Positions 1,236-61,604 of a stretch of 64,000 nt of DNA are shown here, piece by piece. Every line of letters begins with the position of its first letter. Position 1 is the first letter of the stretch. Source of the stretch: an archaeon (lineage in GTDB: Archaea; Nanobdellota; Nanobdellia; Pacearchaeales; GW2011-AR1); assembly GCA_043815245.1 (NCBI GenBank), contig JBDRJD010000008.1, forward strand, positions 163-64,162. Reading direction: 5' to 3'. The notes under the pieces are model-generated. The model saw only the letters and a program-made list of their open reading frames with translations. It ran no database searches and was not told the origin of the DNA. Both the position numbers and the translations under genes were made by a program.

Positions 1236-4200
1236 TTATGTTGACTCAAAAATATCTGGAGGGCGGATTACAGTCATACAATCAGACACCGCATCAACAA
1301 GCACCTTACTATTACCATCATCAACAAGCACTCCCTGATAACCATAATTATAATTCCCCTTACCCAAAGATGCAATTCTGCTTCCAGAATCATCATACTT
1401 CATTGCAGTTTCAGAAACTAAGTCTCCCGGCCCGCCCACAGGATCTCCATATTTCTCAATTTTCGATAATCGATTAGCACTGTCATAATTGCTATTATAA
1501 ACATCTAAAGAATCATCTAAAAGCATAGAGTGAACTCTATTAAAATCATCATATCCAAAACTCATATGATTCATCCAAGACACAGAAAGATCCTCATTAT
1601 ATCCCATATCTACTCTCTGACTTGGAGCTATCTCGCCTGCATCCCAATCCTGAACCCCTCTTAAATTATCAAGCATTCCTAAACTGTTAGTTTCCACTTC
1701 AAGGCGGTTCCAAGTATTATCTCCAAGTATATTGTCATACTCTATTTCACTTAATTCATTATTCCTATCATAGAAATAAGAAACTTTCCCATTCCAGGGT
1801 CCAGATAAGTCTACACTAGATGGTATACTCCCTGGGAGATACTGGTAACCCATTTTTAAATCCGCGCTAGAAGGATCACTACTCATAATTGTAAGTTCAT
1901 TTAATCTGCTTAAATCATCATACTTATAAGTCTCCCTTAAATTTCCGCCAACATAATGCTCATCTAATCTCCCTTCATGGTCATACCAAAACCCTTCATC
2001 CCCACACGGAGTTAAAACAGCTACCAAAAACCCATAATCATCATAAATCCAACTAGTTTCATAAGAAACACCCTCAAGAACATTCTGCCCAGCTAAATCT
2101 CTAACATCATAAGTAGCTACTGCATCAGTAAGCCTGCCATAATTATCATAATTTGTAAATGTTATAGATTTAACAACCCCATTAGAAGAAATCTCTTTAA
2201 GCAAACTTCCATCATAAGTAAAAGAAGTTCTTAAAGCACCTCCACCTGCAGGTCTCTGATAAACATCAGGATAACTAAGCATTCCAAACTCTTCATCAAA
2301 TAAAGTATCGCCTAAATCAAAGGGGATATTTGTAATGGAAGCAGTAATCCTTCCTAATGGATCATTATATTCTGCCTGACTAGTAATAAGAGGTGGTTCT
2401 AAGCAGACCACTGGAGGTTCAGCAGAAGGATTTTCTTGACATCCGAATTCGGTCAAATAACTTGTAAGAAGATTATCATGATTATCATAACTATAAACTT
2501 CTGTATTAAGGAAGTTTCCATATATACTATTATCTACTTGTCTCAACCTACCAAACGAATCAAATCTAAGTTTGCTGCTTGTCTGAGTTGAATCTATAAT
2601 TTCAATATTTCCTTCATTATCAAAAACAGTTTGTGTCCAATACTTAATTCCGTCACTGCCCTCCGCATATTCAATCTTGGTATTGCCGTCAATGAAAGTG
2701 GAGTAATCTGTTGATTTGTCTCCACCAGGAATATTATCAACTACTAAACTCCACAAAGCTCCATCCTCATTCAATCCATAAGAGTAGTCTAAATTAACTA
2801 AATAAGGGGAGGTAGATACAAGCTGGTGCACCTGACTACCATCAGAAACCGCATCATAAGCCGGAATTCCAGGAGTTACATTATAATTTTTAAGAGAAAA
2901 ATCACCATAATACGCATAATGCTCAGTAGTACCATCAGGATATTTAATTCCAAGTGGATGTCCTAAAGCAGAACTAAATTTTCTAGTAATTCTTCCATTA
3001 TCATTTATCTTGTATAGGTTTCCAAAAGAATCATACGAATAAGTAACAGTGTAATCCACTCCATCTTTAATCGGAGTCTTAACTATTTTAGTATAAAAAA
3101 GATCTGGATAAATATACTCCCTTTTAGTTTTTCCATCTGGTCCAATAATCTTTGTCGCCCTCCCCCACCCATCCCTTTCTACAGTCCATTTATTACCGCG
3201 ATCATCAGTATACGCTTTTAAAGTCCCGTCAGGATGATACTCCTGATAAGTACCATACACCATATTCTCCGCACCAGTAACATAAACTCCATCTGCATCA
3301 TAAGTATAAGTAAGTCCAACTCCCCCAGGAGAAATTGTACCTTCTAAATTTCCCACAGCATCAAAATCAATATCAGTCAACTTATCAGGACTAGCATAAA
3401 GAGTTCTATCTTTTTCAATTATAGAATCAATGTAACCTCTTGCAGTATCCCAACCATACATACTTTCAGATAAAGCCAAACCCTCACTATTTCTCACTTG
3501 TTCTGAAAGTACCATTCCATAAATATTACTACCTAGATTATTTGTATAAGTTCTGACTATCTCTCTATCGTCTTCAGATATAGAAGTATCTCCATGCATC
3601 ATTGTATTAGTAGGATACCCATAATCATCTCTCCCAGTAACTTCTGAAAAATAGGTGATAGTGCCTGCATCTCTAATTGTAGTTTTTACTTCATCAAGCG
3701 CAATCATATTTACCTCATCAGGCCAACTATCTTTATGAATAATTTCATATGTATATTCAACATCAACATCAACTTCACCATACTCAGAGGGAATTGTTTT
3801 AAATTTTATCAAACCTTCAAGCTCACCTGCATATTCATTATATATCTCATACTCTGACTCTGGAGTTTCATGCATATACCAGCCGCCTTCAAACTCTGAG
3901 GAATAATAAGACCTCGCATCATAACTAGTTCTCACACTAACATAATTTTCACCATCAAGTATTTCTTTATAATGGATACTCCCAAGCTGTGCAGTTTGGT
4001 CAGTACGTGGAGAATAACCACTCTTTGAAAGTTGTAATGAGAAATATCCACTACCATTTCTGTACAGAAGCCCACCAATACGCTCAGCTAAAGAAAAATC
4101 ATTGTAACTAAACGAACCCGCACATATACCAAATCTTTTTGCTCCTCCATAATACCACACATCACTACATGCCGGCCTCCAAGTATGCAATAGCTTATAA

Positions 4201-6695
4201 GAATCTCCTTCAGAATTAGTTATAGTTATATTTTGTAAAAAATTAAACTGGTAAGCCAATGCACCCCACTCATTACCTGAGGCCGGTACATACTGGAAAC
4301 CATATGTCCTATACAAAGAACCATCAGGGTTATAAGCAGTAATGTTTATAACCTTTTTTAATCTATTAGTTCCATTATAACCTACAGTCAAATTCTTTGT
4401 ATCATATTCAAAATCAAATACTCTTCCAGCTGAATCAACTATATTATGAATATAAGATATCTCAATATCATTTCTACTAGCTCCTAAATTATACTCATCA
4501 ACGTCATATCCAAACAGAATATCATTTCCATTAACATCTTCGATTCTAGTCAAATCCCACTTATACTTAACATCTCTACAAAAAGTTAGCTCATTTTCAT
4601 AATAATACTTAGTTCCATCTGCATAAGTTATCACCCATCCATTATCATTTTTTTCAATTTTTTCATTATTATGATTTTTTAAATAATACCTTCCCCCGCT
4701 TTCATATAATCTTTCACTATCTCCATTAAATACAAGCGAATAATTAAGCTTATTTTCATCATAACCGTCTAAAAAGTCTTCCCAATACACTCTTTCAGAA
4801 AGAGAATCTTGGTTTAAAGCAATATAACTATGGGATATATCAAACATATTATCTCCAAGATGGGAATGGTATTTATCATCAAGCCCACTCCTAAAATAAA
4901 CAGATAAATCAAAATCTAATCCTCCCTTCCCCTCAAATGAACCTAAAAGAAAGTTTTTTCTTATCTCATTAGTATAAACATTAAACCCATCTCTGACAGG
5001 CCCCTTACTTTCATTAAAATTAGGCCCATATAAATTATAAAAAAGTGCGCACTGCACAGGATAACCTTCCTCGCTACAATCTAATACCCAAAATGCTGGT
5101 TTTCTACTATAATCGATATCATCTGAATTTGGCCAAAAAACCTTGTCAGAATTATAATAGATTCTATTCAGATCACTACTCCAGAATATTGGTGTCTGGT
5201 AAGAACTTCCATTTGTAACCTGCTGCCTATTACCTCCTCCTGAGTCCATAGTCCATATATGATATTGATAATCAGCAAGAACCGTCCTATCATTAGTTTC
5301 AGGAGCATCTTCTTTTGACGCATACGCAATCATTCCCCCCCCAGGACTGTGTTTAAAAGACTGAAAATCAATACGGTGTCTGTTAGGAAAAACATTTTCA
5401 ACAATAAATTCATAACCGATATCATTTATCAAAGCATATCCTGCAAGATCTTCTTCATTAACTCCCGCACTACTATCAAATACATACCCATAAATCGCTC
5501 CCCCTGCATCTACAACAGAACTATGATGAATGTGCTCCCTATAATCATCAAAAGTATACTGGCCCGCATTTCCTCCTGAATCAAGAGTCCATACTACATC
5601 ACCATATGTTGGCCACAAAAATCTTTCTCCACACACAATATAATCTTCTCCTTCTACAGCTCCAGGTGGAAGAAGATGCTGTGGGGGAATAGTCCTATAT
5701 AACTGGGAGGAAGTTACTAAAGTAAAAGCACCACCAGGACCATAATTAACACTCATCCACATAGAAGGCCCTATACACGGAGGAACCCATCCTTCAACCT
5801 CAGGTCTAGGCCGTCTTATAACATCATTATTAAGAAACTCATAACTAGTATCATTTGCATCACACTCATCAGGATTGCTACCGCCCCCACAATCTAAAAC
5901 CATATAATAATGACTTGCCTCATCATAATATAACACATCTGTACCTATAAATCCCCTAGCATAAGTCTCACATGAATGCATTGAACTCTCACAATATTTA
6001 AGTCTTCTTAAATTAGTTCCATCTGCATTCATTATCCACAGATCAGTTGCAGGATGTCTCCCCTCACCACGCACCCTTCCAGAAAAGGCAATCTGCCTTC
6101 CATCAGAACTCAATTGCCTGTGATGAGTCCACACATTTATAAAAAAGTCTTCGAAAAACGGACCATATCTTTCAGTTATTGTCTCATTTACTTCAACAGG
6201 TCTGTAATAAATTCCTCTACGAATAGGAGTCTTATCAATTCCATTAACTGCTAAACAAGACCCCTCCATGTCACTAGAACCCGACACCACCCCCACATCA
6301 TCTGCCCCTACAGAAACTTCATCTTCCCACCCTGGATAAATATCACTTTCATTATACATCTCCTCAAGAAGCTCCCCACCCCAGCCCACCACACCTTCAT
6401 AATTCTCTTCAACAACCTCCTCCTCCTCCGCCTCCTCTTGATAAATATCATCATCATACTCTCCAAACCCATTCAACCAATCAGCATAATCTTGTGAATC
6501 GTCCACCCCCACCACCCCCTCTCCTGAATCATCAGCTATCTGCCTTCCAGTAATCTTGGCAACATTTTCCTTTACTAAACTTAAACTTAAATTAAAAATC
6601 TGATATTTATAAAATACAAAAGAAAACAAAATAATTGCTAATAAGAGTACAATAGCCACTACTAATCGTGCATTAGTCCCCTTCCTCTTTTTCAT
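1236..6695 (-). CDS. Giant membrane-anchored surface protein with PD40/TolB-like propeller repeats and a long YD (RHS-type) repeat region
   Basis: 1819-aa ORF. Signal anchor ARLVVAIVLLLAIILFSFVFY, then an acidic E/D linker. PD40-like units (SSDGRQIAFSGR..DLWIMNADGTNLRRL; HIWTMDSGGGNRQQVTNG). More than 12 YD units (YTYDADG, YSYDSFGNLYKINDNGRITRKF, FDSFGRLRQVDN, NYDNYGRLTDAV, YKYDDLSRLNELT, NYDSANRLSKIEKYG). Confidence 0.8.
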   Translation of the reverse strand: MKKRKGTNARLVVAIVLLLAIILFSFVFYKYQIFNLSLSLVKENVAKITGRQIADDSGEGVVGVDDSQDYADWLNGFGEYDDDIYQEEAEEEEVVEENYEGVVGWGGELLEEMYNESDIYPGWEDEVSVGADDVGVVSGSSDMEGSCLAVNGIDKTPIRRGIYYRPVEVNETITERYGPFFEDFFINVWTHHRQLSSDGRQIAFSGRVRGEGRHPATDLWIMNADGTNLRRLKYCESSMHSCETYARGFIGTDVLYYDEASHYYMVLDCGGGSNPDECDANDTSYEFLNNDVIRRPRPEVEGWVPPCIGPSMWMSVNYGPGGAFTLVTSSQLYRTIPPQHLLPPGAVEGEDYIVCGERFLWPTYGDVVWTLDSGGNAGQYTFDDYREHIHHSSVVDAGGAIYGYVFDSSAGVNEEDLAGYALINDIGYEFIVENVFPNRHRIDFQSFKHSPGGGMIAYASKEDAPETNDRTVLADYQYHIWTMDSGGGNRQQVTNGSSYQTPIFWSSDLNRIYYNSDKVFWPNSDDIDYSRKPAFWVLDCSEEGYPVQCALFYNLYGPNFNESKGPVRDGFNVYTNEIRKNFLLGSFEGKGGLDFDLSVYFRSGLDDKYHSHLGDNMFDISHSYIALNQDSLSERVYWEDFLDGYDENKLNYSLVFNGDSERLYESGGRYYLKNHNNEKIEKNDNGWVITYADGTKYYYENELTFCRDVKYKWDLTRIEDVNGNDILFGYDVDEYNLGASRNDIEISYIHNIVDSAGRVFDFEYDTKNLTVGYNGTNRLKKVINITAYNPDGSLYRTYGFQYVPASGNEWGALAYQFNFLQNITITNSEGDSYKLLHTWRPACSDVWYYGGAKRFGICAGSFSYNDFSLAERIGGLLYRNGSGYFSLQLSKSGYSPRTDQTAQLGSIHYKEILDGENYVSVRTSYDARSYYSSEFEGGWYMHETPESEYEIYNEYAGELEGLIKFKTIPSEYGEVDVDVEYTYEIIHKDSWPDEVNMIALDEVKTTIRDAGTITYFSEVTGRDDYGYPTNTMMHGDTSISEDDREIVRTYTNNLGSNIYGMVLSEQVRNSEGLALSESMYGWDTARGYIDSIIEKDRTLYASPDKLTDIDFDAVGNLEGTISPGGVGLTYTYDADGVYVTGAENMVYGTYQEYHPDGTLKAYTDDRGNKWTVERDGWGRATKIIGPDGKTKREYIYPDLFYTKIVKTPIKDGVDYTVTYSYDSFGNLYKINDNGRITRKFSSALGHPLGIKYPDGTTEHYAYYGDFSLKNYNVTPGIPAYDAVSDGSQVHQLVSTSPYLVNLDYSYGLNEDGALWSLVVDNIPGGDKSTDYSTFIDGNTKIEYAEGSDGIKYWTQTVFDNEGNIEIIDSTQTSSKLRFDSFGRLRQVDNSIYGNFLNTEVYSYDNHDNLLTSYLTEFGCQENPSAEPPVVCLEPPLITSQAEYNDPLGRITASITNIPFDLGDTLFDEEFGMLSYPDVYQRPAGGGALRTSFTYDGSLLKEISSNGVVKSITFTNYDNYGRLTDAVATYDVRDLAGQNVLEGVSYETSWIYDDYGFLVAVLTPCGDEGFWYDHEGRLDEHYVGGNLRETYKYDDLSRLNELTIMSSDPSSADLKMGYQYLPGSIPSSVDLSGPWNGKVSYFYDRNNELSEIEYDNILGDNTWNRLEVETNSLGMLDNLRGVQDWDAGEIAPSQRVDMGYNEDLSVSWMNHMSFGYDDFNRVHSMLLDDSLDVYNSNYDSANRLSKIEKYGDPVGGPGDLVSETAMKYDDSGSRIASLGKGNYNYGYQGVLVDDGNSKVLVDAVSDCMTVIRPPDIFEST

Positions 6696-56310: not shown

Positions 56311-57125
56311 TTTATATCATCAAACGCAGAAACCAGTCCATATTTTCTTCGTTCTATTATTTCCTTAATAACTCCATTTCTTTCTGCTATTTCATAAATT
56401 GGCTTTTTTCTATTTTCTTCATCAACTAATTCATCAATTCTAAACGCACTTGCAGCTTCCATAACTCTTTGAGAACCATAAGGTAAGTAAACTTTTATGC
56501 CAAAATGCGAGCTCATCTTATCTGATATTCCAAGATGATTTTCAATTAATCTTCCCATATCTTGTTTTAATTTTTCTCTACTTACTTCAGGATCCGAAGA
56601 TCTATGGCTATAATATCCCCCCATTAACTCATCAATAACATCGCAACATATCACCTTATCTGTACCTTCAGACAAAATTTTCATTAACATATAATAATTA
56701 TCAGGCCTATCCATATTAGCTCTTAGTATTTCATTTGAAGATCTTATATCTTCTTTAATGACTTCAGTAAAATGTAAAGTATGCCCTAAATTAATATGTC
56801 TTTCTTTTAGTTCTCCAAAAAATCTCTTAGCATAAACCATATCTGGATGTTCTTCATTTATTGCAAGTGTATGGGCTACCACTAAATCGGAAGTTCTAAT
56901 TTCTCCTAATAATCTAACTAAAATCAAAGAAGAATCAACTCCTCCTGAAAAAGCTAAATGAACTTCTCTTTCTTCTTTTAAAATTTCTCTGCAAATCTCA
57001 TTTACAGAACTATTAATTGCTCTTTCTAATGAATCAATTTTACTCTTATAACTTTTTTCAGAAACATTTGCTTCAAACTGATAATTCCTTATTCTCTCAA
57101 ATAATTCATCCTTTCCTACTATCAT
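56307..57125 (-). CDS. Asparagine-synthetase-like PP-loop ATP pyrophosphatase without a glutaminase domain
   Basis: 272 aa. PP-loop VHLAFSGGVDSSLI. AsnB C-domain-like CCDVIDELMGGYYSH and KVYLPYGSQRVMEAA. Confidence 0.65.
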   Translation of the reverse strand: MIVGKDELFERIRNYQFEANVSEKSYKSKIDSLERAINSSVNEICREILKEEREVHLAFSGGVDSSLILVRLLGEIRTSDLVVAHTLAINEEHPDMVYAKRFFGELKERHINLGHTLHFTEVIKEDIRSSNEILRANMDRPDNYYMLMKILSEGTDKVICCDVIDELMGGYYSHRSSDPEVSREKLKQDMGRLIENHLGISDKMSSHFGIKVYLPYGSQRVMEAASAFRIDELVDEENRKKPIYEIAERNGVIKEIIERRKYGLVSAFDDIK

Positions 57126-57372
57126 TCCTAGCTCCTATCACCCCACTTTCAACATGCCATCCTCCTTCCAGACACTCCTCGCTAAATTCTACTTTAACTT
57201 CCTTCTTCTCAAAGTCGTGTCCAATAGCTTCCTTCTTATCAATTTTATGCTTCCCACACTTACAGTGTTCAATCGAATACTGTGCATCTTCATGATCTCC
57301 ACCACAGTGATGAACTTTATGTCCTTCATTTTCATGATGCACATGATGAAACAATTCTAGTATCTCTCCCAT
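57106..57372 (-). CDS. His/Cys-rich miniprotein (putative metal-binding)
   Basis: I prefer the ATG at 57372 (88 aa), 1 nt after the upstream TGA. It has 12 His and 4 Cys (FHHVHHENEGHKVHHCGGDHED..EHCKCGKH). Confidence 0.5.
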   Translation of the reverse strand: MGEILELFHHVHHENEGHKVHHCGGDHEDAQYSIEHCKCGKHKIDKKEAIGHDFEKKEVKVEFSEECLEGGWHVESGVIGARNDSRKG

Positions 57373-57373
57373 T

Positions 57374-57994
57374 TCAATTTCCTTTTGAAATATAATGCTC
57401 AAACGCTTTTATAACTGCTGCATGAATATTATCTGCCAGCGCTTCATACTCTTCGTAAGTTGGGAAAAAATCATACTCTATCTTACTCCCATTTACTGAA
57501 AAATCAGATAAATTTGCTATCTCTGGTTCAAACCTCGACCCTTTGTAAATTTCCTGAACAGCTTCAACATTCCTATCATTCATTGCAAGAATCAAACCAG
57601 AGTCTGGCCTCACAACCATTTGCTTCATAGGCTCACTCAGCGCCTTTAAACTCTTAGCACCTAAAACCCTCTTTACACACCCCCATTCATACTCAAAAGC
57701 CTGCTCAATGGCTAATAAAGAAGCTTTATCATTTTCAGCTTTTACAGCTTCAATTAGCTTACTATCTAAAGCCTGAGTACTTACTCCTCTATCAAGGTAA
57801 GGTAATAAAAATTCTCTAGCTGCTTGGGGATCTTTCATTGACTTCTGCGCATCTAAAGCTCTAGAACCACTTGAACTTAGCCTTACTCCTACAAGCTGCT
57901 TATATCTTACTTTTACATCCCCTCCAATAGCTTCAGCTATAATGCTCCTGCAAACATTAGCTGAACAAGCAAACTCAACATCTGTGATAACCAT
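57374..57994 (-). CDS. Low-molecular-weight phosphotyrosine phosphatase/ArsC-fold protein
   Basis: 206 aa. N-terminal C-X5-R-S P-loop FACSANVCRSIIAEAI. Confidence 0.6.
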   Translation of the reverse strand: MVITDVEFACSANVCRSIIAEAIGGDVKVRYKQLVGVRLSSSGSRALDAQKSMKDPQAAREFLLPYLDRGVSTQALDSKLIEAVKAENDKASLLAIEQAFEYEWGCVKRVLGAKSLKALSEPMKQMVVRPDSGLILAMNDRNVEAVQEIYKGSRFEPEIANLSDFSVNGSKIEYDFFPTYEEYEALADNIHAAVIKAFEHYISKGN

Positions 57995-58700: not shown

Positions 58701-58746
58701 ATTATAAATACGCTTTCCTCTTTTTTAAAGCTTAGTTTTGTATTAG

Positions 58747-58817
58747 TGGACCCATCGGGAATCGAACCCGAGTCTCATCGCTGCCAGCGATGTATCATAC
58801 CACTGGACCATGGGCCC
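58747..58817 (-). tRNA. tRNA-Ala (anticodon GGC)
   Basis: Reverse complement GGGCCCA..CATCG-CTGGCAG-CGATG..TCGGG-TTCGATT-CCCGA-TGGGTCC-A. The G3:U70 identity pair is present. No encoded CCA. Confidence 0.85.
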
Positions 58818-58850: not shown

Positions 58851-59081
58851 TTACTTCTTGTCCTTGTTTTTAACAACAAAATAATAGATTAAAGCCCCTA
58901 ATAAGTGTAAAAACACCACTATTATAACCCAGGCAATCTTCTCTCCATCTGTCTTAAACTTCCTAGTGGCCGCATCAACAATCATCCAAATCCAAAAGGC
59001 AGTCACTAGCACAACTAAACCTAAAATAAGCATAACTAACAAGATTATTGCAGGAAGGATAAGAAAAGCCCCACTTACCAT
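58851..59081 (-). CDS. PLD_nuc_N-like small membrane protein
   Basis: 76 aa, two TM helices. WIWMIVDAATRKF..KIAWVIIVVFLHLLGALIYYF pattern. Confidence 0.55.
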   Translation of the reverse strand: MVSGAFLILPAIILLVMLILGLVVLVTAFWIWMIVDAATRKFKTDGEKIAWVIIVVFLHLLGALIYYFVVKNKDKK

Positions 59082-59123: not shown

Positions 59124-59837
59124 ATGGAAATTCTAGATCTATTCAAGAAAAAGGTGGAAAAGCAAATTGATTTTTCAGTAGCAAAGCATATTGATGGAAA
59201 CTATGATGATTTTAAAAATCGCTTAAAAAAAGATAGCTTAATAGTTTTAATTACAGGGAAGAGAGGTTCAGGAAAAACAGCTCTTGGCTTTAAATTTTTA
59301 GAACTAGTTTCAGGAAAAAGAAAAGCTTATTACCTTGGAAAAGCAAAACTTCCAAGGTTCATTAAAAAAGTTGACGATATAAAAGAAGTAAGAAATGACT
59401 CGGTAGTTTTAGTAGACGAAGCAGCAATAACTTACTCTGCGAGAAGCTCAATGAAAAAGTCAAATAAAATTCTATCAGAATTAATGACAATTGCGAGGCA
59501 TAAGGGCCTTTCCTTAATTATAATCACTCAAAGTTGTATGCCTCTAAAAACAAAAATAATAACTGAAAAAGGAGTTCAATCGCTAGGAAAATTAAAAATG
59601 GGCGATAAGGTTCTTTCATATAATATCAAGAAAAGAAGACTAGAATTTAAAAAAGTTTTTGCCATATCTCCAATAAAAAAGCAAAGGGTGATAGAAATTC
59701 AAACGCAAGATGGAAAAATAATTAAATGCTCTCCTGAACATAAATTAATTGTTAAAAAAGAAGAGAAGTTAATTAAGAAAAAAGCCAAAGACCTCACAGA
59801 AAAAGATATATTATTCAAACCATTAAATACTGAATAA
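59124..59837 (+). CDS. N-terminal half of a fractured P-loop NTPase (Zot-like) fused to a split-intein N-fragment
   Basis: 237 aa. Extein residues 1-137 carry Walker A GKRGSGKT, Walker B VVLVDEA and ARHKGLSLIIITQS. From Cys138 (59535) the sequence reads CMPLKTKIITEKG..GDKVLSYN..IKCSPEHKLIV (intein blocks A/B), then TAA. Confidence 0.8.
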   Translation: MEILDLFKKKVEKQIDFSVAKHIDGNYDDFKNRLKKDSLIVLITGKRGSGKTALGFKFLELVSGKRKAYYLGKAKLPRFIKKVDDIKEVRNDSVVLVDEAAITYSARSSMKKSNKILSELMTIARHKGLSLIIITQSCMPLKTKIITEKGVQSLGKLKMGDKVLSYNIKKRRLEFKKVFAISPIKKQRVIEIQTQDGKIIKCSPEHKLIVKKEEKLIKKKAKDLTEKDILFKPLNTE

Positions 59838-61343
59838 ATTTAATCTTTACCATTTTTATATTCTAAAACACAGTTTCTAGAGCAAAATTTAGCCCTGCCC
59901 CTCTTTACATCAGCAGGATTTGGATAAAAAACCTCTTTACAATTTAAACATAATTTTTTATTTTTTTCATTAGTGAAGTCCGTCTGACATTTGTTAGAAC
60001 AAAATTTTCTGATTCTATATCTAGGTACAATAAATTTATTATTACAATTTTTACAATTTAAAGTGACTCTATGATAATTATTTTTGCAATTCAGATCACA
60101 AAATTGTTGAGTTAGGGCTCTTGAAGATATTGTTAGAAATTTTTGCCCACAGGATTTACATATTTTAGTTATAATTATTCTTCTTTTAGATTTTTTTATT
60201 GGAACTTTTTCTTTAGATATATTAACTAATTCAGGATTTTTATTGATAATATTTTTTATTAAACCTTCAGAATTATTATTTATTTGAGTTTCATTAAAAA
60301 CAAAAACATTATATCCTTTCTTTTTTAAATACTTAATTTTTATTTTGTCTTTATTACAAGATCTGGGAAACAATTTAGGATTATGCCAAAAATCTCCATT
60401 GCATTCAATAATAATATTAGGGGGAATAAAAAAATCAACAAAATAATTTCTTTTTCCAGATGCATTTTTAATAGGTTTTTCTTGCTCAAAATAAATGTTA
60501 TATTTTTCCAATAAATCTCTTATCTTAGATTCAATTAATGTTTCATTTTTAGATTTTTTAGAACATTCTTGACTGCAATACTGTTGAATTTCTTTAAAAT
60601 ATCTTGCTCTAATAAATTCTTTGTTACACCAGGCGCATTTGAGTTTGACCAATCCTCCTCCTTTAATTCTTTCTTCAACAGTTTTATTAGGAAAATTATC
60701 TCTACAAATTCTTGAGCAAAATATGCCTTCTCCTCTAACAAGTTTAGCTTGTTCAACATAAAAATCATTTTCACAAGTAGGGCAAATTTTATAAGAACCT
60801 CTCAAATTTTTTCCAATATAAGATTTATTTCTACATTCAATTGAACAATATTTGGCGGGATTTTTTTTAGAAGTCCAAAACCACTTTTGACATTTTGGAC
60901 ATTTAACTTTCTTATTATATTTATTTCTTATATAAATTCTAGTGCATTCACTTGAGCAAGTTGGTGCTTTGATTTTTTCTTGATAAGGCCATATATTATA
61001 ATTCTTACTGCAAATAGTACACTGCTTCTTCAGCACATTATTCTTTCGATTCATATGACATTTTCTACTGCAAAAAGTTCCCCCCCATTTTAATCTACTT
61101 TCTAAAATAAAGAATTCTTTTTTACAAGTAGGACATATTTGTTTAACTCTCTTTTTCATTTTGATACACAAACAGAAAGTCAGAAACATATATAAACTTT
61201 TCTTTTTTATTATAATTATGAAAAAACAAAATTTTGTTAGAATTAAGAATATAAAGAGATTGATTAAAAAAGAGTCTATGATAGACATCACTATAGAAGA
61301 TAATGAAAACTTTATCTTATCAAATGGCATATGCGTTAGTAAT
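59535..61343 (+). mobile_element. Split intein plus antisense endonuclease gene (selfish insertion inside the NTPase gene)
   Basis: Bounded by intein residue Cys+1 (59535) and the terminal Asn codon (61341-61343). It contains the endonuclease ORF on the opposite strand. Confidence 0.7.
59840..61159 (-). CDS. Free-standing homing-endonuclease candidate: Vsr/DUF559-like nuclease core flanked by 5+3 zinc-ribbon repeats
   Basis: I prefer the ATG at 61159 (MKKRVKQICPTCKKEF..), giving 439 aa. Eight CxxC..x10-16..CSxxC units. Core YFVDFFIPPNIIIECNGDFWHN..KKKGYNVFVFNETQI resembles the Vsr pattern (..FVdGCFWHgH..GW.V..vWEce). Confidence 0.7.
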   Translation of the reverse strand: MKKRVKQICPTCKKEFFILESRLKWGGTFCSRKCHMNRKNNVLKKQCTICSKNYNIWPYQEKIKAPTCSSECTRIYIRNKYNKKVKCPKCQKWFWTSKKNPAKYCSIECRNKSYIGKNLRGSYKICPTCENDFYVEQAKLVRGEGIFCSRICRDNFPNKTVEERIKGGGLVKLKCAWCNKEFIRARYFKEIQQYCSQECSKKSKNETLIESKIRDLLEKYNIYFEQEKPIKNASGKRNYFVDFFIPPNIIIECNGDFWHNPKLFPRSCNKDKIKIKYLKKKGYNVFVFNETQINNNSEGLIKNIINKNPELVNISKEKVPIKKSKRRIIITKICKSCGQKFLTISSRALTQQFCDLNCKNNYHRVTLNCKNCNNKFIVPRYRIRKFCSNKCQTDFTNEKNKKLCLNCKEVFYPNPADVKRGRAKFCSRNCVLEYKNGKD

Positions 61344-61604
61344 TCTGCAATGATAGATCTTAATGTAATGCGTCTAGCAGACACAATTATCTTTAAAGAG
61401 CCTTCTTTACTTCAAAGCAGGTTTGAAAGAAAAGCCTTAGTTGACTTATTTAAAAAAGCAGATGAAAATTTTAATAAAATTCCAAAAAAAGACAATAAGA
61501 AAAAATACTTCTATGTCTTAGATGACGAATTTGAAGGCCTACTTTCTTCAACGCTTCCTAGCTTTTGGAGTGATAAGATTTCCAAGAGTTTTGCTAAGTA
61601 TTAG
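61218..61604 (+). CDS. Split-intein C-fragment fused to the C-terminal half of the fractured P-loop NTPase
   Basis: ATG at 61218. 42 aa MKKQNFVRIKNIKRLIKKESMIDITIEDNENFILSNGICVSN, then +1 Ser (61344) and an 86-aa extein SAMIDLNVMRLADTIIFKEP... The track start at 61161 is an alternative-codon extension. Confidence 0.75.
   Translation: MKKQNFVRIKNIKRLIKKESMIDITIEDNENFILSNGICVSNSAMIDLNVMRLADTIIFKEPSLLQSRFERKALVDLFKKADENFNKIPKKDNKKKYFYVLDDEFEGLLSSTLPSFWSDKISKSFAKY

Follow-up and report, generated by a model that had tools for sequence, protein, structure and literature searches.

Organization of the locus

In this work we characterize a putative fractured gene on contig JBDRJD010000008.1 of the archaeal assembly GCA_043815245.1, located within a stretch of 64,000 nucleotides that was analyzed as a whole and is referred to as the window. 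Between positions 59124 and 61604, the coding sequence of a small P-loop ATPase appears to be interrupted by the two halves of a split intein, which are in turn separated by a free-standing endonuclease gene on the opposite strand. The upstream open reading frame (N-ORF, 59124-59837, forward strand), which encodes 237 residues and ends at a TAA codon, combines the ATPase's N-terminal portion with an N-intein fragment. The former (N-extein, residues 1-137, 59124..59534) ends in ..IIITQS, as delimited by matches to the Pfam families Zot and nSTAND3 and by an ungapped alignment to orthologues. It is followed by 100 residues of intein and the stop codon (59535..59837), with Cys138 of the reading frame, at position 59535, marking the switch point and constituting Cys1 of the intein (CMPLKT.., block B CSPEH). 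The second forward-strand frame (C-ORF, 61218-61604), of 128 residues with its ATG at 61218, opens with a C-intein fragment of 42 residues (61218..61343), defined by the profile TIGR01443 and by alignment to the structure chain 4lx3_B, which closes with ..NFILSNGICVSN and is followed by a serine at 61344. The latter is the +1 residue of the C-extein (61344..61604), which further contains 85 ATPase residues (SAMIDLNVMRL..) and the stop codon.

The two intein halves are about 1.4 kb apart, and the interval is occupied by a gene on the reverse strand (59840..61159, ATG at 61159) that encodes 439 residues in antisense orientation relative to the ATPase. The gene and the N-ORF are convergent, with 2 bp between its 3' end and the stop codon of the latter, and its start codon is separated from that of the C-ORF by a divergent spacer of 58 bp (61160..61217). 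All of these boundaries agree with the original prediction, which had been made by a model from the DNA alone and which had proposed a junction at Cys138 (59535), a C-ORF starting at the ATG at 61218 and an antisense frame of 439 residues between both halves. In the NCBI records (MFH1500509.1 to MFH1500511.1, labelled 'MAG: archaeon', for metagenome-assembled genome), the three reading frames carry the product names 'Hint domain-containing protein', 'DUF559 domain-containing protein' and 'hypothetical protein' and are thus treated as separate items, which leaves the split-intein arrangement unannotated.

The interrupted ATPase and the junction of its exteins

The proposed relationship of the interrupted protein to Zot-like P-loop NTPases is borne out by the Walker A (GKRGSGKT) and Walker B (VVLVDEA) motifs, which can be read directly, and by profile matches of the joined exteins to the Pfam family Zot (PF05707, 31.1 bits, cut-off 20.3) and to nSTAND3 (29.6 bits, cut-off 27.2). 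The best fold matches to an AlphaFold2 model of the spliced protein are 4kfs and 4r2h (E ~1e-6, TM ~0.5) and 2r2a, and with the model as a guide we classify the protein as a putative small FtsK/HerA-type, Zot-like P-loop ATPase. Searches with the joined exteins (223 residues) retrieved 383 homologous proteins, the best of which are 221-224 residues long and share about 75% identity at 100% query coverage. The MAGs encoding these homologues are labelled Nanoarchaeota, Pacearchaeota and Woesearchaeota, and most of the 383 proteins are intein-free orthologues.

In the alignment to intact orthologues, the junction ITQ(N/S)-SAMIDLN, where the hyphen denotes the insertion site, is ungapped and the +1 serine is invariant, with S138, A139 and M140 of the joined extein being fixed throughout. 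The uninterrupted homologues thus join exactly at ..TQ(N/S)-SAMID.., as is illustrated by the intein-free allele at locus L031, where ..ATAACCCAGAAT is directly followed by TCCGCGATGATT.. across the site. Homologues containing residues aligned to the proposed intein segments, which would speak against the original prediction, were not found, and zero residues of the intact proteins align to these segments. ASCE (additional strand, catalytic E) ATPases normally carry the sensor-1 polar residue after a β-strand of the ..LIIITQ kind, and we take the intein site, which directly follows this strand, to be a sensor-1-like position.

A second ATPase copy was not found within the 64-kb window. Among the intact orthologues, the closest is P0001 (L031, 5001-5675), which is located directly upstream of a gene cluster encoding proteasome-alpha, SBDS and the exosome subunits Rrp4, Rrp41 and Rrp42, a neighbourhood that hints at a housekeeping role of the ATPase. 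This neighbourhood differs from that of the fractured gene, and no syntenic 'empty site' was found.

Sequence features of the intein halves

Both fragments had been proposed to resemble inteins, and both score above the cut-offs of the respective profiles. The N-ORF matches Intein_splicing (PF14890) with 46.0 bits (cut-off 35.8) and intein_Nterm (TIGR01445) with 32.1 bits (cut-off 24.5), and the C-ORF matches intein_Cterm (TIGR01443) with 26.7 bits (cut-off 15.6). When the halves are joined, the match to PF14890 reaches 65.4 bits and extends over profile positions 9-155 of 155. The best sequence match of the fused intein in the PDB is the gp41-1 split intein (6qaz), whose fragment boundary (..VKE-MMLKK..) aligns with the break in the window intein. 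As judged from these alignments, the split coincides with the position between blocks B and F at which endonucleases are canonically inserted.

Residues of the presumed active site are strongly conserved. C1, S66 and H69 are without variation among 7 aligned inteins, and the same holds for D123, N131, F132, G137 and N142. None of the aligned alleles thus deviates at Cys1, the S-x-x-H signature of block B, the block-F Asp, the terminal Asn or the +1 Ser, and the intein shows the block A nucleophile, the block B (with a Ser at the position of the Thr), the terminal Asn and the +1 residue that are characteristic of class-1 inteins. A hidden Markov model built from the intein alignment (A3) matched only the two halves in the 64-kb window, which contains no further inteins.

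The intervening endonuclease

The gene between the halves had been predicted to encode an endonuclease, and profile and fold comparisons both lead to a Vsr-related family. The protein scores above the cut-off of DUF559 (PF04480, 20.6 bits) as a whole (24.3 bits) and as an isolated core (27.3 bits), and it is related to the homing endonuclease I-Bth0305I (3r3p) with E 1.3e-4 when searched as a single sequence and E 7e-7 with a family profile. An AlphaFold2 model (pLDDT 80) finds 3r3p_B as top match in Foldseek, with a target-normalised TM-score of 0.76 and a probability of 1.0, followed by E. coli Vsr (1cw0) and then by the DUF559-like 3hrl. The crystallized protein in 3r3p is the double mutant D196A/H213A. 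In the window protein, D242 and H259 are found opposite the two alanines, and E210 and D271 opposite E170 and D222 of I-Bth0305I, respectively. An alignment of 12 homologues (A2) shows no variation at E210, D242, E252 and H259, and 10/12 sequences have D271.

This Vsr-like or EDxHD core (residues ~205-310, 60230..60547, reverse strand) is surrounded by eight modules of the form C-x2-C-x14-18-C-x3-C, which were identified in a regular-expression scan. Five of them precede the core (residues 9-199, 60563..61135, reverse strand) and three follow it (residues 334-430, 59870..60160, reverse strand), and all 32 cysteines are either invariant or present in at least 90% of the rows of A2. Compared with curated families, the modules gave sub-threshold matches only, to zf-FCS (PF06467, 17-19 bits, cut-off 22.4), YacG (15.4 bits, cut-off 25.5) and Zn_ribbon_4. 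A weak profile match was obtained to the FCS finger of PHC1 (2l8e, E 0.03), and the likeness to FCS, MYM and YacG fingers is confined to this match and the C-x2-C...FCS-x2-C pattern. Neither a NUMOD nor a helix-turn-helix (HTH) motif was matched in the protein. We infer that the zinc modules serve DNA binding and that the EDxHD core cleaves. A Vsr-like core embedded in such an array of FCS-type zinc modules was found nowhere else in this analysis and has not been described for the EDxHD family.

Relatives of this endonuclease are rare. Among 5.8 billion proteins we found 17 homologues, 11 of them full-length with 54-64% identity, and the species representatives of GTDB contain a single full-length relative; in IMG/VR none was found. 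The GC content across the gene (59800-60700) is 21-25%, compared with 30-38% in its flanks, in agreement with a gene of foreign or mobile origin.

Isolated parts of the protein are encountered in other contexts. One metagenome contig (L039, 2516-2965) encodes the same zinc-module array without a recognizable nuclease core. Free-standing Vsr-like nucleases (IIIECDGDFWH) are found in MAGs of Pacearchaeota and Woesearchaeota (L014 3383-4390, L015 1410-2570 and L028 281-1129), in which HTH or NUMOD3-like repeats take the place of the zinc modules; those at L014 and L015 are located directly downstream of a XerC/D-like integrase gene. Finally, many species of Lysinibacillus carry on their chromosomes a relative of the nuclease domain with 29-33% identity over ~120 residues (L016-L026, ~4001-4381).

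Recurrence and conservation of the arrangement

The arrangement is found in ten distinct alleles from ENA, JGI, NCBI and Logan assemblies, namely that of the window and those at L001, L004, L006, L007, L034, L035, L036, L037 and L038, where loci representing the same allele (L001/2/3 and L004/5/13) were grouped. The antisense layout is common to 10/10 alleles and to every endonuclease homologue with readable context. In the homologous loci, the first frame, containing the ATPase and the N-intein, encodes 248-253 residues and the second, containing the C-intein and the ATPase, 124-132. The neighbouring genes vary between alleles and include TsaD, S-adenosylmethionine synthetase and RadC, a ribosomal protein operon with an ABC transporter, and a DEAD helicase. 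Since the layout recurs in ten divergent alleles whose assemblies are independent and whose flanking genes differ, a misassembly or chimera is excluded.

Between alleles, pairwise identities amount to 49-72% for the exteins, 49-64% for the intein and 56-67% for the endonuclease. Synonymous sites are saturated, with proportions of synonymous differences (pS) of 0.6-1.1 and of non-synonymous differences (pN) of 0.18-0.35, and the ratio of non-synonymous to synonymous rates (dN/dS), where dS was computable, is ~0.09-0.2 for exteins, intein and endonuclease. All three parts are thus under purifying selection, and their selective maintenance argues against both a dead gene and a decaying endonuclease.

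A conserved element in the divergent spacer

The spacer between the start codons of the endonuclease and the C-ORF is 50-58 bp long in 6/7 loci compared and 36-42 bp in L034, depending on the start codon. Near its center, the sequence (A/G)AAC(T/A)TATATAA is found in 7/7 loci. In the window it reads AACATATATAA (61185..61195) and constitutes a candidate bidirectional archaeal element combining a TATA box and a B recognition element (BRE). This box is located 22 nt before the ATG of the C-ORF and 29 nt from the start codon of the endonuclease; across loci, the respective distances are 22-29 nt (6/7) and 19-29 nt (7/7). The 64-kb window contains a single instance of the extended motif, at 61185, with TATATAA itself being found 0.42 times per kb, and this rarity makes its presence in 7/7 spacers by chance very unlikely. 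The box was moreover retained in all of these loci despite the saturation of synonymous sites between them.

Archaeal TATA boxes have their center some 26-27 nt upstream of the site at which transcription starts. The spacing of the box fits this canonical position and leaderless mRNAs in both directions, which suggests a promoter function. We thus assume that the box is probably a bidirectional promoter, acquired together with the endonuclease gene, from which the C-half would now be transcribed. On the opposite side, the 3' ends of the N-ORF and the endonuclease gene converge and overlap by 0-23 bp.

Distribution of fractured alleles and related loci

The fractured alleles are scattered over at least three extein clades, each of which contains nearer intein-free relatives. 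The window extein shares 75% identity with the intact proteins P0001-P0006, with other fractured exteins ranking 119-123 of ~124, and the exteins of L004 and L006 are nearest to the intact P0118 (77%) and P0101 (76%), respectively. In most cross-clade pairs, the endonuclease has the lowest dN and the extein the highest; between the window and L001 the three values are 0.238, 0.269 and 0.374 in this order from endonuclease to extein. Conservation of the intein and the endonuclease equals or exceeds that of the exteins, a pattern that fits horizontal spread of the intein and endonuclease as a putative unit among DPANN lineages.

Variants of the ATPase and intein were exhaustively searched among 1.84 billion representatives, complemented by a word-indexed intein profile search of the GTDB species representatives, which has low recall and gave 21 matches. 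More distant N-halves at the same intein site were found in P0148 and P0163, and P0182 (780 residues) contains a contiguous mini-intein at TQ-S, within one residue of the window site. At other sites of the ATPase family, inteins interrupt the P-loop in P0167 and P0240 and follow Walker B in P0147 and NLVRF in P0196, which suggests that the family is an intein hot spot. P0147 and P0240 each contain one contiguous intein and, in addition, a terminal N-intein.

Two distant ATPase homologues (L030 4001-6225 and L029 184-1348) are fractured at the same TQN-S site by an unrelated gene on the same strand. The latter encodes 335 residues with a zinc ribbon, a GerE-type HTH and a PD-(D/E)xK-like C-terminus and overlaps the C-intein frame, whose intein ends in ..THN, in a classical layout of the type described by Dassa et al. 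That one intein site is independently broken by unrelated endonucleases and has relatives with contiguous mini-inteins is what the gene-breaking model of these authors predicts. A further pair of loci (L008 3286-5141 and L010 748-2606) contains dUTPase genes split by an intein with a same-strand endonuclease of 285 residues (P0133 and P0134), which combines four FCS-type zinc modules with a Vsr-like core, shares 26-33% identity with the window endonuclease and overlaps the C-intein frame, again as in the classical Dassa layout.

Genomic context

The window contains core cellular genes, including those for GatB, AlaRS, LeuRS, an H+-PPase, acetyl-CoA synthetase and POR, and a scan with Rfam detected three tRNAs only. 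The contig is thus part of a cellular archaeal chromosome of DPANN type, and the original prediction had likewise held it to be cellular and of archaeal type. A phage or provirus origin is ruled out by these genes, by the lack of endonuclease relatives in IMG/VR and by the location of an intact orthologue beside proteasome and exosome genes.

Just upstream of the fractured gene, the reverse strand carries a tRNA-Ala(GGC) (58746-58817) and a frame encoding a membrane protein of 76 residues (58851-59081). At a larger distance (57106-57402, reverse strand), a small His/Cys-rich frame (..HHVHHENEGHKVHHCGGDHED..CKCGKHK..) has the appearance of a metal-binding peptide.

Discussion

On the basis of the described sequence features, we consider it likely that the two halves of the gene are expressed separately, the C-half from the box in the spacer, that they trans-splice to an ATPase of 223 residues, and that a still-functional Vsr-like endonuclease with zinc modules maintains or spreads the element. 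In this process, a class-1 intein in a chromosomal ATPase gene would have been broken by a free-standing homing-endonuclease gene at its endonuclease-insertion loop. The N-half, comprising the N-extein and the N-intein of 100 residues, would be driven by a host promoter, and the TATATAA box would direct a leaderless mRNA of the C-half in one direction and the endonuclease mRNA in the other. The intein fragments would associate and trans-splice, with Cys1 and Ser+1 acting as nucleophiles and the terminal Asn cyclizing, to release a protein with the native ..ITQS-SAMIDL.. restored, and the NTPase would be present only after this reaction. The endonuclease, presumed to cleave with its EDxHD core and to bind DNA with its eight FCS-type modules, probably cuts element-free alleles, and the unit would spread via recombinational repair.

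Several observations weigh against parts of this mechanism. Block B reads S-P-E-H with a Ser replacing the usual Thr, and the penultimate position of the intein is taken by Ser or Cys in the fractured alleles instead of by the block-G His found in class-1 inteins, which is present in the contiguous relatives P0182 and P0147. Charge complementarity between the fragments is typical of split inteins, and at the level of whole fragments none was seen, both being basic. The model of the spliced ATPase is of moderate confidence (pLDDT 67.7), and an intact paralogue may exist elsewhere in the genome, beyond the 64-kb window. In the endonuclease, an Asn replaces D271 in P0127 and P0129, at the position of D222 in I-Bth0305I and D97 in Vsr, and the nuclease of these two homologues may be attenuated. 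In L034 (873-1301), the box is just 8-14 nt from the candidate starts of the C-ORF, whose start is ambiguous. With respect to recent homing, the divergence is ancient, and at the observed synonymous saturation such events are not resolvable from dN/dS. The scattered distribution could also have its source in an ancient acquisition that was followed by repeated precise loss.

Going beyond the proposed trans-splicing and spread of the element, the endonuclease might be a modular zinc-finger nuclease, with a dimerizing Vsr-like core and eight modules reading a long target, that has become locked into a partnership with its host, in which expression of the C-half would depend on the element through the shared palindromic TATA box and convergent transcription would tune the assembly of the ATPase. 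We regard this elaboration as rather unlikely; if true, it would explain the purifying selection on endonuclease, intein and exteins across deeply diverged DPANN lineages.

A related alternative, which we deem improbable, is that the endonuclease has lost its homing function and is kept for a function in the host or in regulation, be it by supplying the promoter of the C-half, by binding DNA or by antisense control of the N-half. The strong and very long purifying selection, unlike the decay expected from the classic homing cycle, is in its favor, as are the convergence of its 3' end with that of the N-ORF, the sharing of the spacer box with the C-half, the D271N replacement in two homologues and the lack of copies in IMG/VR. 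Conversely, the catalytic residues E210, D242, E252 and H259 are invariant, the scattered fractured alleles and an element that is at least as conserved as its host gene point to continued horizontal spread, and relatives are found in other fractured genes (those of dUTPases), as would be the case for mobile endonucleases.

The replacement of the penultimate His and of the block-B Thr would also suit an assembly in which the intein fragments only dimerize non-covalently to give a two-chain ATPase, similar to the intein-less genes-in-pieces NrdA of phage Aeh1, and split proteins that reassemble without splicing are discussed in the literature (PMC2677866, PMC3045599). We again assign a low likelihood to this scenario, since the fixed Cys1, block-B His, block-F Asp, terminal Asn and +1 Ser would be needless for mere binding. 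Moreover, the DnaE intein of Npu, which is an efficient trans-splicer, also ends in ..ASN, and about 140 extra residues would probably hinder the function of the ATPase, since the intein is placed within its core and adjoins a conserved strand.

Finally, a dead gene, in which the insertion of a selfish endonuclease would have destroyed the intein-bearing ATPase gene and left non-functional remnants, would agree with the annotation of the three frames as unrelated items and with the far larger number of intein-free orthologues, but is very improbable in light of ten divergent alleles that keep both halves intact and in frame with all splicing residues conserved, of a dN/dS of ~0.1-0.2 on exteins and intein at saturated synonymous sites, of the conserved spacer box and of the lack of a second ATPase copy in the window.

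The locus extends the fractured-gene arrangement, so far known mainly from phage-like fragments of ocean metagenomes, to cellular chromosomes of DPANN type, with a new host protein and insertion site. It further suggests that such an arrangement can last under selection over deep divergence and that it can be oriented the other way round, with a promoter of its own that is probably bidirectional. The two unrelated endonucleases at one site, together with the mini-inteins, form a natural series for testing the model of Dassa and Pietrokovski. For protein engineers, the at least ten divergent natural split-intein pairs (Cys1/Ser+1, ~100 + 40 residues), which are related to gp41-1, might be of use, and the nuclease, in which arrayed FCS-type zinc modules are combined with a Vsr-like core, is of possible interest.

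Comparison with known systems

The closest precedents are the fractured genes described by Dassa, London, Stoddard, Schueler-Furman and Pietrokovski in 2009 (NAR 37:2560; PMC2677866), which include gp41-1, gp41-8, IMPDH-1, NrdA-2, NrdJ-1 and others. The original prediction had described this work accurately. As in these loci, the window contains N- and C-split inteins fused in frame to their exteins and, between them, a free-standing gene for an endonuclease, and it has in common with them the Vsr-like class of the endonuclease, control elements tied to the endonuclease gene and the intein type (gp41-1). The fragments of 100 and 42 residues are inside the ranges of 88-105 and 33-54 residues reported for these genes, in line with the predicted resemblance to natural split inteins. 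However, the published loci contain three frames on the same strand, with a gap of 27-51 nt and the 3' end of the endonuclease overlapping the C-intein frame, they are mainly phage-like and located in enzymes of DNA synthesis or repair, and their Vsr-like endonucleases contain NUMOD motifs and were predicted to be devoid of zinc (PMC2677866). In the window, the endonuclease gene is antisense, with convergent 3' ends and a divergent spacer that is 50-58 bp long in 6/7 loci compared, the host is a small Zot-like ATPase on a chromosome of DPANN type, and the endonuclease contains eight zinc modules. Since the same-strand layout is stated explicitly in that paper, the antisense orientation is a real departure, as had been suspected at the outset.

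Similar relationships hold for the individual components. I-Bth0305I, the prototype of the EDxHD (Vsr-like) homing endonucleases (Taylor et al., 2011; PMC3239194; PDB 3r3p), a family that was first predicted in the fractured-genes paper (PMC2677866), is the closest solved structure by profile and fold and shares with the window protein the composite E..D..H..D motif. It is encoded in an intron of phage recA, whereas the window gene is free-standing inside a split intein, and, like its relatives, it has a NUMOD/HTH region at the N-terminus and lacks zinc. Its nuclease is C-terminal, whereas that of the window protein is central, with five zinc modules before and three after it.

The likeness to cyanobacterial DnaE C-inteins that had been noted initially is evident in the alignment with the Npu DnaE chain 4lx3_B, which ends in ..DHNFALKNGFIASN compared to ..DNENFILSNGICVSN in the window, with the pattern ..NF.L.NG...SN, including the penultimate Ser, common to both. 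The DnaE inteins of cyanobacteria (Npu and Ssp) and the PolB intein of Nanoarchaeum equitans, which is cited in the fractured-genes paper (PMC2677866) and is a precedent from a nanoarchaeon, are naturally split class-1 inteins in cellular genomes, like that of the window. Their halves are encoded at distant loci without an intervening endonuclease, whereas those of the window are 1.4 kb apart with the endonuclease kept. The packaging NTPase B204 of the Sulfolobus turreted icosahedral viruses STIV and STIV2 and the N-domain of Zot are the best fold matches of the ATPase model, at an identity of just 17-25%; unlike B204, the window ATPase belongs to a family of chromosomal genes with a wide distribution among Nano-, Pace- and Woesearchaeota, for which no viral context was seen.

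A literature search for split inteins and fractured genes in DPANN, Woesearchaeota and archaea in general did not reveal an equivalent system, with publication elsewhere being possible. The locus described here is not surprising in kind, but it is unusually well replicated for a cellular archaeal lineage, and it departs from the fractured genes of Dassa et al. in its cellular archaeal host, its new host protein, the antisense orientation of the endonuclease gene and the zinc modules of the encoded enzyme.

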